Source: Paramecium tetraurelia
Lineage: Eukaryota
Assembly (NCBI GenBank): GCA_000165425.1
Contig: CT867985.1
Coordinates: forward strand, 248,001 to 312,000
Direction of reading: 5' to 3'
Length of the DNA: 64,000 nucleotides
Positions 30,864-34,243 of this stretch are shown here, piece by piece; positions within the stretch are counted from its first letter, which is position 1; every line of letters begins with the position of its first letter. Made by a program: the position numbers and the translations under genes. The notes beneath the pieces are model-generated. The model searched no databases. It saw nothing but the letters and a program-made list of their open reading frames with translations, and was not told the DNA's origin.

Positions 30864-31732
30864 ATGTTTGAATAAGTGAGCAATTCTCGGTTAGATGATA
30901 TTAATTATGAAATGAAATATTACAATAATAAATTTCTAGATGTTAAATTATCAGGGAAATTTATGGGTTCGAAAAAATTATGTATTAGGCAATAGGGTAA
31001 ATCATACTTGATATAATTTAATAAGACCTAATATCCTTTGTTTTTGGGGACAGTAGCTGGGACGCTTTTGCTTTACTTATATTGTGATTTTGTTTTACTC
31101 CAAAAATATTGTGAGATCCCAAATTTAAGTAAAGTAATTGTAACATTTCAGATACTATCAATTTATTCAATGTTCAAGGTCAATATGACAGGTAAAGTAA
31201 CACCTTTTAGATTTTAGAACCAGGAGTTCAAATGCAAACGATTTAAGATGATAAATATTTTGATGGCAAATTGTGTGAAAAATGCAAAGCCATTAAAATT
31301 GATCGTTGTTATCATTGCAAATTTTGTGATCATTGTGTAAACGATTTTGAAGCGCATTGTTTTTTGATGGCAACTTGCATAGGCAGGAGAAATATAAAAT
31401 ATTTGTTAGGGCTAGTCACATTTACAGGGATAGCGTTATACTTATTATTACTTATTTTGATTTATAAATGTAGAAGTCACTCTAATAATTATAGTATTTG
31501 TATCGGATTGTAAGAAAGAGCTAACCTTTATTATTCTAAATATTGTGAGTCTGGTTTTGACATTGGTTCACTTGAATCCGTTTATATATACGACTTGGAG
31601 AAATGCATCATAAGTAATGAAAATCTTAAGTTTATAGAATTGGACAAAAAAAGAAATGAATAGAACCAAATTCAATGGATCACTTTCATATATTTATAAT
31701 AATTACAAATAATTCTTTACTCGATTTTATGA
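30864..31732 (+). CDS. Divergent DHHC palmitoyltransferase-family protein (EAHC variant)
   Basis: Two TM segments and EPG, then CEKCKAIKIDRCYHCKFCDHCVNDFEAHCFLMATCIGRRNIKY, then two more TM segments. Three introns. Confidence 0.8.
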
Positions 31733-31940: not shown

Positions 31941-33984
31941 ATGAAAATTAATAATAATATTCCAAATTATCTAAAATTACCACATATTGGACATTAATGG
32001 AAATTCTTGAAAAACATAGAACTAAGTACATTTACTAATAGCAGTATGGAATAATCATGCAAAAATAATAATAGCAGTTTGATGACTCATAGTAATGTGG
32101 GTCCTAATCGAACTTAATATGAAGAAACTCCATAAAATAAGAAAAAAAGATTGATAAAAAGTTAATCTATAGATGTCGATTAATAATTGTATTAAATTGA
32201 TTCAGTAAGAGAATCGAATTGTGATTAAGTGAAAAAGATAGCAGAGAATCTAATTAAATAATACGATAACGTGAAAGTCTCTGAAAAATAGAAGAGTGCT
32301 TTAATGCTCAAAAAACAATTGACTCTTAATAACTAAATAGTGTAAAAACCACATCTTGATAAATGTTAATCATTATATCAATTGTAAAATGAAAAAAAAT
32401 AGAACGCTAAGTAACCTGAAACCAGTGAAATCAATTCATTTACTCAATTTTTTCAAATAGTTTAAAATCAAGAATAAAGCAAAGTTAAGAAAAGAAAATG
32501 TTAAATCAACTTTTTCAAGAAGAGTTAATCTATGGATACTATAGATGTAGTAGAACACCAGAAAAAGATCACAAAATTACTTTTACAATAAAAAATTAGA
32601 ATTAAACCTAAGTTCTCTTCAACGATTAACATCTAGGATCTCCTTTAGTAAAATTGAAATAAATTAAATGAATTAAAATTATTATCAAATATGTTAATCT
32701 CGAAGACAGATAATGATGATCAATAAGAAGGTGTAGTTGATCCAAAATTACCAGTTTGTCCAAATTGTGGTTCCGCAAAAGAGGGCATTTTAGAATAAGG
32801 ACCATCTCCTGCATCATTCATAATTTCTCTGATATGCCTTTACTATTGTGGAATTTGGTCCGTGTTGCTTATTCCATTAGTATTTTAATCAACTAAAGTA
32901 ATAATTTTAGATCTACATATAGGTAATAATAAAAAGGTGTTAGTATTGTAATTAAGAATTAGAAAAAAGGAATTATTTTCAATTACCAAATATAAATGAT
33001 TAAGTTATGCAATTTAAATTTGGTAATTGTATGATAGTGGCTTCTAGGAAATATGCATTGATTCTATTGGGCATAATATTTTTGTTATTCTTTTATTTTT
33101 AATAATAAATAGAAAAAGAGCCTATAAAAATTGAGATTGATTATCCTACTGATAAATCCTGGATGGATTTCTTATAACTTTGTGGGAAATTTTAGTTTGT
33201 TGAGAATGGACTTAAGGCAAGACATCAATTTGAAACTAACTTTAAAGGTAAAATTGTTGCTTGGAATGGGTATGGCTTTATTTTATATTTTAGGATTTAT
33301 GTCAAAACTAAATCTAATAATGATATGAATTATTCATACAGTCATTGGGTTTATATTAAAATGGATCCAACAGAATCAACAGATGACATACCAGATGTTG
33401 TATTAGGTGTAAATTCATAATAATATTCAATTGAAAAATTTAACCTTTTAGAGCAAGGATAATCAATCAATTTTAATGCAAAATTTATATCATTAGGATC
33501 TGAATATAATTTTCACATTTTAGAGCTAAAATAATTAGAAATTAATACTTCAGAGAGTTTAGTGGATATAAAATAGATAAAAAAATTTACTTTGATTATG
33601 GATTAATCATAATAGCTTAAACAAACCAAACTGCAGGATTCATTAAAGCGTATGATTCATATGTATTAACCAAGGAGAAATGATAGTCAATCTGATAATT
33701 AAAATAATGTTTTTAGGATGGGATTAAGTGCTGAGGAAATCTAAAAAATTGAAGAAGATATTGAAGAATTATAAAAATAATTGGAATTAGAGGACCAATA
33801 AGAAAATGAATAAGTTGTTGATTAAAGCTCACAAATTAAGAATGATTAACTTGAAGATAAAGTATAAAAAGAAGAAAAAGATAGGGATATGACTTAAAAA
33901 CTTGAAAATAATTAGGATAAATAAGTTGAGAAGGAAGAGTCTACAAAAGATAGTTCAATTGAGAGCAATTTAGATTAATAATGA
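31941..33984 (+). CDS. Membrane protein with LITAF-like Zn domain and wolframin-like C-terminal domain
   Basis: CPNC-hydrophobic-RCQYC, a TM segment, then WMDFLQLCG..FKGKIVAWNG..DVVLGV..LEQGQSINFNA..FHILEL, and an acidic tail. Confidence 0.7.
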
Positions 33985-34036
33985 GAATGAGAAAAATATA
34001 AAATTTGAGAATAATTGTTATTTAATTAATTAATAA

Positions 34037-34243
34037 ATGGAATTTCTCAGCGATCTTGATTTTTTACCAGGAAGCATTAATCCAAAGTTGAAGGGTTTAA
34101 TATATCTCATCACAATAATACATGCATTGGCTGTGCTTATATGGATTGTATTATTGTGTAGAGCATAAGGAAGAAAGACAAATTCTTTTCAAAGTTATGT
34201 GGAATAAGTGATGGGTGAGGAAACCAAAATTAAGCATCATTGA
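34037..34243 (+). CDS. Small single-TM protein, 68 aa
   Basis: MEFLSDLDFLPGSINPKLKGLIYLITIIHALAVLIWIVLLCRAQGRK..HH*. Confidence 0.7.

Follow-up and report, generated by a model that had tools for sequence, protein, structure and literature searches.

Two groups of described proteins offer the closest comparison for a gene located in Paramecium tetraurelia contig CT867985.1 (GenBank assembly GCA_000165425.1), within the stretch of 64,000 nucleotides running from positions 248,001 to 312,000 of the forward strand that was analysed here as a whole and is termed the window. The first group, LITAF/SIMPLE and CDIP1 (Pfam family PF10601), is characterised by a CxxC pair, a hydrophobic stretch of ~27 residues and a second CxxC pair, and in the part of the literature on human LITAF drawn upon here (PMC5142333) both halves of this domain are placed in the cytosol, with a hydrophobic part that does not span the membrane. 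The second is wolframin (WFS1), the C-terminal module of which, positioned just past a transmembrane (TM) helix, consists of a helical cap opening with W-x2-(F/Y)-x3-C-G followed by an oligonucleotide/oligosaccharide-binding (OB) barrel. The nearest chain in the Protein Data Bank (PDB) to the wolframin OB fold was reported to be 3F1Z in the AlphaFold human-proteome paper, in which the register of cap and strands agrees with that proposed below. In those sections of the 2020 wolframin domain paper (PMC7016017) available for comparison, wolframin is called uniquely metazoan, with C-terminal domains of unclear origin and a cysteine-rich region that can be unified with no known domain; the term LITAF has no occurrences in that paper. 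The Paramecium gene, which occupies positions 32691–33984 of the plus strand of the window in three exons, is best explained as coding for a two-anchor membrane protein that combines a LITAF domain, a TM helix and a wolframin-type luminal module, an overall reading to which a probability of about 0.7 is assigned.

The predicted 414-residue product shares with LITAF/SIMPLE and CDIP1 the succession of knuckle, hydrophobic stretch and knuckle, from which it departs in having an Arg immediately before the second knuckle. Whereas the domain of human LITAF is C-terminal and lies behind a proline-rich region (PMC5142333, in the portion consulted), that of the Paramecium protein is N-terminal, beginning after ~17 residues, and unlike LITAF/SIMPLE it would be followed by a true TM helix and, if the topology set out below is correct, a large non-cytosolic part. 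With wolframin it has in common the cap motif, the barrel, the location just past a TM helix and the same nearest solved structure, 3F1Z. It differs in lacking the multi-pass TM core, Sel1-like repeats and EF-hand of wolframin (only two hydrophobic segments are present and no such Pfam families were matched), in carrying a loop between strands 1 and 2 (L12) of 9 Cys-free residues in place of a long disulfide-rich one, and in its presumed cytosolic partner domain, which is LITAF where wolframin pairs its module otherwise. The host, moreover, is an alveolate, while the protein with which it is compared is described as uniquely metazoan in the sections of PMC7016017 already referred to.

The window has a G+C content of ~28%, and open frames appear only when TAA and TAG are read as Gln, in keeping with the ciliate code (NCBI table 6) used for all translations. 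Exon 1 (32691..32897, codons 1–69, with the ATG at 32691) encodes a short N-terminus, the first CxxC knuckle and the hydrophobic LITAF anchor; exon 2 (32923..33269, codons 70–185, the last codon being split) the second knuckle, a juxtamembrane motif, the TM helix, the helical cap and the start of OB strand 1; and exon 3 (33294..33984) the remaining OB fold, a conserved helix and an acidic Gln/Glu/Lys-rich tail terminated by TGA at 33982–33984. The two introns are both of the form GTA...TAG: the first (32898..32922, 25 nt) is frame-shifting, such that the exon 1 frame with CPNC and the hydrophobic stretch joins the frame of RCQYC and the C-terminal region once it is cut out, and the second (33270..33293, 24 nt) is in frame and stop-free. 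None of nine database homologues from the P. aurelia species complex contains the eight residues that the latter encodes; a translation of exons 2 and 3 in which it is read through (P0002) is 100% identical to the spliced product in the aligned residues. That product is itself identical to P. tetraurelia database protein P0004, titled just 'LITAF domain-containing protein'. An assembled transcript contig of 1408 nt from run X4 maps to 32600–34037 and is shorter than the DNA by exactly 25 letters at position 32898 and by 24 at position 33269, and stranded poly-A RNA reads from three runs (X19–X21) cover the interval from ~32690 to 34030. Taken together, the identity with P0004, the absence of both introns from the X4 contig and the RNA reads establish that the gene is real, expressed and spliced as modelled. 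Exon bins 32906–33007 and 33467–33517 showed zero depth in all three raw RNA runs though the X4 contig spans them, which may be an artefact of laying short reads on AT-rich sequence. No second copy of either the LITAF or the OB domain was detected by tblastn within the window.

Residues 18–85 of the spliced product (32742..32970, plus strand, split by intron 1) form a LITAF-like zinc-ribbon domain that matched PF10601 well outside the range of chance, with an expectation value (E) of 5.1e-11 and a score of 43 bits where the cut-off is 23.8, the alignment extending over profile positions 3–69 of 70; the exon 1 translation by itself also matched above cut-off (E 2.4e-6). The first knuckle, C23-P-N-C26 (32757–32768), and the second, C75-Q-Y-C78 (32938–32949), bracket the hydrophobic anchor of residues 40–66 (32808–32888; hydrophobic windows span 40–72) in the manner that defines the LITAF pattern. 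By analogy with the human protein, the domain is assumed to bind zinc and to insert monotopically from the cytosolic face. Kyte-Doolittle hydropathy disclosed one other hydrophobic segment only, windows above 1.6 spanning residues 105–133 around the core ALILLGIIFLLFFYF (residues 114–128, 33055..33099), which is taken as a single TM helix. The segment is preceded by the motif QF+FGNC.(I/V)V.SRKY, of which F.FGNC..V.SRKY is invariant in nine out of nine Paramecium proteins and of which a similar form can be seen in Plasmodium, Vitrella and Perkinsus proteins; Lys and Arg on its N-terminal side and Glu and Asp on its C-terminal side follow the positive-inside rule. If the topology of human LITAF is applied here, the second segment is the sole membrane-spanning helix and the later chain is luminal or outside, so that the OB module would be exposed to an organelle lumen or to the exterior. 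A prior interpretation of this DNA made from its letters and open reading frames (the sequence-only reading) had proposed a LITAF domain, a following TM helix and a wolframin-like C-terminal part; the first two are borne out by the results above, and the strings that it quoted (CPNC, RCQYC, WMDFLQLCG, FETNFKGKIVAWNG, DVVLGV, LEQGQSINFNAKF and FHILELK) all recur in the plus-strand translation and fall in one gene after splicing. The interval that it had marked (32750–33545) spans both the LITAF and the OB parts but leaves out the gene start and the tail.

The wolframin-type module proper comprises the 120 residues 149–268 (33160..33543, split by intron 2), in which the W..F...CG motif is represented by W149, C156 and G157, the module as a whole having a single Cys. 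A profile prepared from nine Paramecium domain stretches (A2) was searched against 1.84 billion representative proteins, and returned 138 at E ≤ 0.001 and 40 at E ≤ 1e-10. A 104-row alignment (A3) was then compiled, including 103 relatives with a near-complete domain and leaving out fragments, P0110 and P0141, the last a 912-residue repeat protein considered a probable false positive. When supplied with A3, AlphaFold2 yielded a model with a predicted local distance difference test score (pLDDT) of 92.5 and a predicted template modelling score (pTM) of 0.82; the model obtained with the nine Paramecium sequences alone was poor (pLDDT 46.7), and only its strand order was used. In domain numbering (to which 128 is added to give protein numbering) the model has helices at 21–28, 30–35 and 37–47, strands at 51–64, 74–80 and 92–96, a short helix at 103–107, strands at 114–123 and 131–140, and a long helix at 161–180, a succession that is in OB-fold order. 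The module is thus predicted to be a three-helix cap, starting from W..F...CG, joined to an OB barrel of five strands, the third and fourth of which are separated by a helix.

Comparison of this model with PDB chains using Foldseek, the scores of which indicate fold and not family membership, gave 21 matches at E ≤ 0.001, namely OB domains of lysyl-tRNA synthetases, CST, RPA and MCM together with the Klebsiella lipoprotein 3F1Z; asparaginyl-tRNA synthetase was also among the best structural matches, and sequence identity throughout was 5–17%. The OB fold anticipated for the C-terminal region in the sequence-only reading is consequently supported at the level of a confident predicted structure. 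Positions retained in at least 90% of the A3 rows were W21, C28, N36, F44, W55, G57, M80, P82, D91, F117 and G125. The loop that follows strand 2, M-x-P-(S/T)-(E/D)-S, may be advanced as a candidate functional site.

The relationship with wolframin was assessed with Pfam models at E ≤ 0.01 for 137 of the 138 A2 hits, the Paramecium protein's own cluster (P0005) being left out. PF10601 was matched by 36 of the 137, 35 of them above cut-off and one (P0129) below. The wolframin OB model PF19913 (WCOB, cut-off 23.4 bits) was matched by 15, three of which exceeded the cut-off (P0098, 28.1 bits; P0038, 25.1 bits; P0096, 24.7 bits), and the wolframin cysteine-rich model PF20053 (WC-rich, cut-off 24 bits) by three, one of them above it (P0101, 31.4 bits, E 2.4e-7). 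P0038, P0096 and P0098 had themselves been found by the Paramecium profile at E 3.7e-12, 1.8e-6 and 2.4e-6, respectively. Within A3 (104 members), the families matched most often at E ≤ 1 were LITAF (46), WCOB (25), WC-rich (15), DUF4839 (9) and tRNA_anti-like (4), and alignment of A2 with the WCOB-positive group of 12 proteins (A4) using hhalign gave a probability of 99.4% and an E value of 9.7e-22 over 121 columns. The placing of the matches is constant: those to WC-rich cover profile positions 1 to 43–60 (of 106), mapping to the W..(F/Y)...CG helices together with strand 1, while those to WCOB cover positions ~6 to 55–88 (of 121) and map to strands 2–5. Once the Pfam register had been placed on the model by tracing P0096 through the hhalign alignment, the cap together with strand 1 corresponded at family level to WC-rich positions 1–43, and strands 2–5 to WCOB positions ~6–68. 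On this sequence evidence the cap-plus-OB family is probably a remote homologue of the animal wolframin C-terminal luminal module, to which it would be linked via intermediates.

A number of results weigh against that kinship as far as the Paramecium protein itself is concerned. Neither WCOB nor WC-rich was matched at E ≤ 10 by any of ten Paramecium sequences (A1), or by P0002 or P0003, and the isolated domain gave no WCOB match at E ≤ 1, its sole Pfam match being to DUF4839 (PF16127; E 0.1, 13.1 bits against a cut-off of 25). The 36 LITAF-fused relatives, scanned at E ≤ 0.3, included four matches to WCOB (best E 0.0039) and three to WC-rich (best E 0.061), none above cut-off, and the stronger matches to the wolframin models sit in unfused, partly bacterial proteins. 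Searches of PDB sequences with the protein, A2 and A3 recovered no wolframin chain. The nearest clusters in a language-model atlas were of ciliate hypothetical proteins (0.89), tRNA_anti-like proteins (0.84) and DUF4839 (0.82), all below the 0.9 level, outside the range in which the atlas is reliable, and no wolframin cluster was among those listed. A conserved set of cysteines in wolframin is represented in the domain by one, and in the whole comparison wolframin itself is represented by the Pfam models. When longer relatives were sought by word-seeded searches with A4 (700–2000 residues, 6984 candidates) and A5 (379–2000 residues, 7998 candidates), nothing was returned at E ≤ 1; known family members of more than 379 residues were also not recovered, and these searches therefore say nothing about wolframin. 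The PDB sequence matches that were returned were at chance level and were set aside: one to a dynein light chain (E 1.2), one to KKT14 (E 0.34) and one, on the LITAF part, to a Tetrahymena TM protein (E 0.039).

Since the Paramecium protein has no direct match to the wolframin models, the link with wolframin is transitive. The kinship proposed in the sequence-only reading accordingly stands at the level of the family, through PF20053 and PF19913 matches in the register that was proposed, and falls short in two respects, the lack of a direct match by the Paramecium protein and the lack of a cysteine-rich loop. The Paramecium module looks like that of wolframin minus the cysteine-rich loop, and the architecture and the wolframin kinship, considered jointly, are held to be very probably correct.

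The alternative that survives best would assign the C-terminal module to a wide family of OB domains of bacterial type, secreted or found in lipoproteins, represented by PF12869 (tRNA_anti-like) and PF16127, and would treat the WCOB matches as general likeness within the OB clan with no special tie to wolframin. The DUF4839 match of the isolated domain and the two atlas neighbours from these families are consistent with such an assignment, as is the presence among the best structural matches of 3F1Z, the OB-fold lipoprotein KPN03535 of Klebsiella pneumoniae, which is labelled a putative nucleic-acid-binding lipoprotein and which aligned with the module at a TM(target) of 0.57–0.58 and an identity of 14–17%. 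This chain we take to be a member of PF12869. The Pfam scan at E ≤ 0.01 also recorded matches to PF12869 (4 of 137) and PF16127 (2 of 137), none above cut-off, in addition to a single one to PF01336 (tRNA_anti-codon), again below it; P0004 itself gave no match to PF12869. These few matches are outnumbered by those to WCOB, both in that scan (15, against 4 and 2) and in A3 (25 of 104, against 4 and 9, respectively). The WC-rich model, for its part, represents the wolframin region upstream of the barrel, and was matched in register by 15 of the 104 A3 members at E ≤ 1, the best reaching 31.4 bits. As a substitute for wolframin kinship the bacterial-type assignment is therefore considered unlikely; since the published nearest PDB chain of the wolframin OB fold is this same 3F1Z, the two may in any case be compatible.

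If the protein is indeed a two-anchor membrane protein with a wolframin-type luminal module, the following mechanism may be envisaged. The cysteine knuckles of the N-terminal zinc ribbon would clamp the hydrophobic stretch in the cytosolic leaflet, where that of human LITAF lies, thereby holding the N-terminus at the cytosolic face of an endomembrane, and the TM helix would take the remaining chain across that membrane to the lumen or the outside. There the OB module could bind a luminal protein ligand, by analogy with wolframin's C-terminal segment in the lumen, which binds secretory-granule cargo. Protein-protein contacts, without a calcium-binding role, were proposed for the wolframin OB fold in the sections of PMC7016017 available. 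Location and ligand are both inferred, and the role of the module as a luminal protein-binding receptor, drawn as it is from analogy, is put forward tentatively as the likeliest one and may well prove incorrect.

A different function was suggested in the sequence-only reading, that of a calcium-store or quality-control component in the endoplasmic reticulum (ER) or alveolar sacs. In a calcium store, the acidic tail and the loop M-D-P-T-E-S-T-D-D would bind luminal Ca2+. Wolframin is tied to ER calcium homeostasis (PMC7016017, in the same sections), the last 139 residues of P0004 carry a net charge of -12, and M80, P82 and D91 of the loop are nearly invariant in the family. The Pfam scans, however, matched neither a motif nor a family for calcium binding, and the tail is poorly conserved even between Paramecium copies; the protein-protein contacts proposed for the wolframin OB fold in place of a calcium-binding role point in the same direction, and a calcium-store function is rated very unlikely. 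That the OB fold might instead be a cytosolic or nuclear binder of nucleic acid, with residues 105–133 not spanning a membrane, is exceedingly improbable, for while the best structural matches are anticodon-binding and single-stranded DNA-binding OB domains (of asparaginyl- and lysyl-tRNA synthetases, RPA, CST and MCM), the low identity to them (5–17%), the TM-helix length and flanking charges of residues 105–133, conserved in the alveolate proteins inspected, and the occurrence of the domain behind hydrophobic stretches in both of two other relatives inspected (P0101 and P0020) all argue to the contrary.

With regard to the distribution of the family, LITAF-fused members were recovered from ciliates (five Paramecium species, Tetrahymena malaccensis and Protocruzia adherens, with P. 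sonneborni having in addition a second, 305-residue LITAF-fused type) and from myzozoans, including apicomplexans, chromerids and perkinsids (Plasmodium falciparum, with a protein of 770 residues, P. vinckei, P. ovale, Cryptosporidium canis, a Gregarina species, Vitrella brassicaformis and Perkinsus olseni). The P. vinckei and P. ovale members are titled 'conserved Plasmodium protein, unknown function'. Unfused modules occur in bacteria, as in P0101, a protein from a Phycisphaerae metagenome-assembled genome in which a zinc ribbon and hydrophobic stretches precede two copies of the module in tandem. P0020, an unnamed protein, carries the module twice, along with a GYF domain, CxxC pairs and hydrophobic stretches. 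Many further A2 hits are unnamed metagenome fragments. The LITAF-TM-OB layout is thus common to ciliates and myzozoans, and the module by itself is also found in bacteria; the sequence-only reading had placed the component in ciliates, to which the layout is not confined. As a separate observation, the layout of P0101 and P0020 (a presumed cytosolic zinc ribbon, with a GYF domain as well in P0020, then hydrophobic stretches and tandem modules) parallels the alveolate order of zinc ribbon, TM helix and OB fold.

Two features of the protein lie beyond the module. A helix at residues 289–308 (33604..33663), corresponding to model helix 161–180, falls in a block with pLDDT 63–84 and is kept among the Paramecium copies. 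It is followed by a Gln/Glu/Lys/Asp-rich tail (33667..33981), recognised as variable by sequence alignment.

Other open reading frames (ORFs) of the plus strand were noted in the vicinity of the gene. Upstream, that at 31232–31729 matches the DHHC palmitoyltransferase domain (PF01529, E 6.2e-16) and reads ...CVNDFEAHC... at the position expected for the DHHC tetrapeptide, as might result from a variant of the active site or from a short intron left in place. Immediately 3' of the LITAF-OB gene begins an ORF of 68 residues (34037–34240) with one hydrophobic helix, for which no Pfam family was matched and which showed an RNA depth of 11–65 as against ~1–18 for the LITAF-OB gene. Further downstream lie tandem short-chain dehydrogenase genes (PF00106; 36282–37357 and 37427–38355), each made up of two overlapping ORFs, an arrangement that suggests a short intron in each.

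The protein thus consists of known domain types in a union that is undescribed, the database entry marking the LITAF domain only. A survey of the literature joining LITAF with wolframin, Plasmodium falciparum or Toxoplasma gondii found no account of this architecture among the papers listed, those that join LITAF with wolframin being unrelated gene-list papers; InterPro may already mark some members. At the strength with which the kinship is held, the wolframin C-terminal module gains relatives outside animals, among them a minimal form that lacks the cysteine loop, and the start of the Pfam 'cysteine-rich domain' and the OB barrel emerge as one fold. The entries titled 'conserved Plasmodium protein, unknown function' would at the same time receive a first structural annotation. 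A more far-reaching interpretation, offered as something of a long shot, is that the module is a non-animal relative of the wolframin cargo-binding domain which was already present in bacteria and alveolates prior to animals, and that in alveolates it serves as a LITAF-tied luminal receptor for the proteins of dense-core, lysosome-related organelles (trichocysts, mucocysts, rhoptries and micronemes). Should a role as a luminal receptor prove true, a disease-relevant domain of Wolfram syndrome would become open to genetics in Paramecium, Tetrahymena and Plasmodium.

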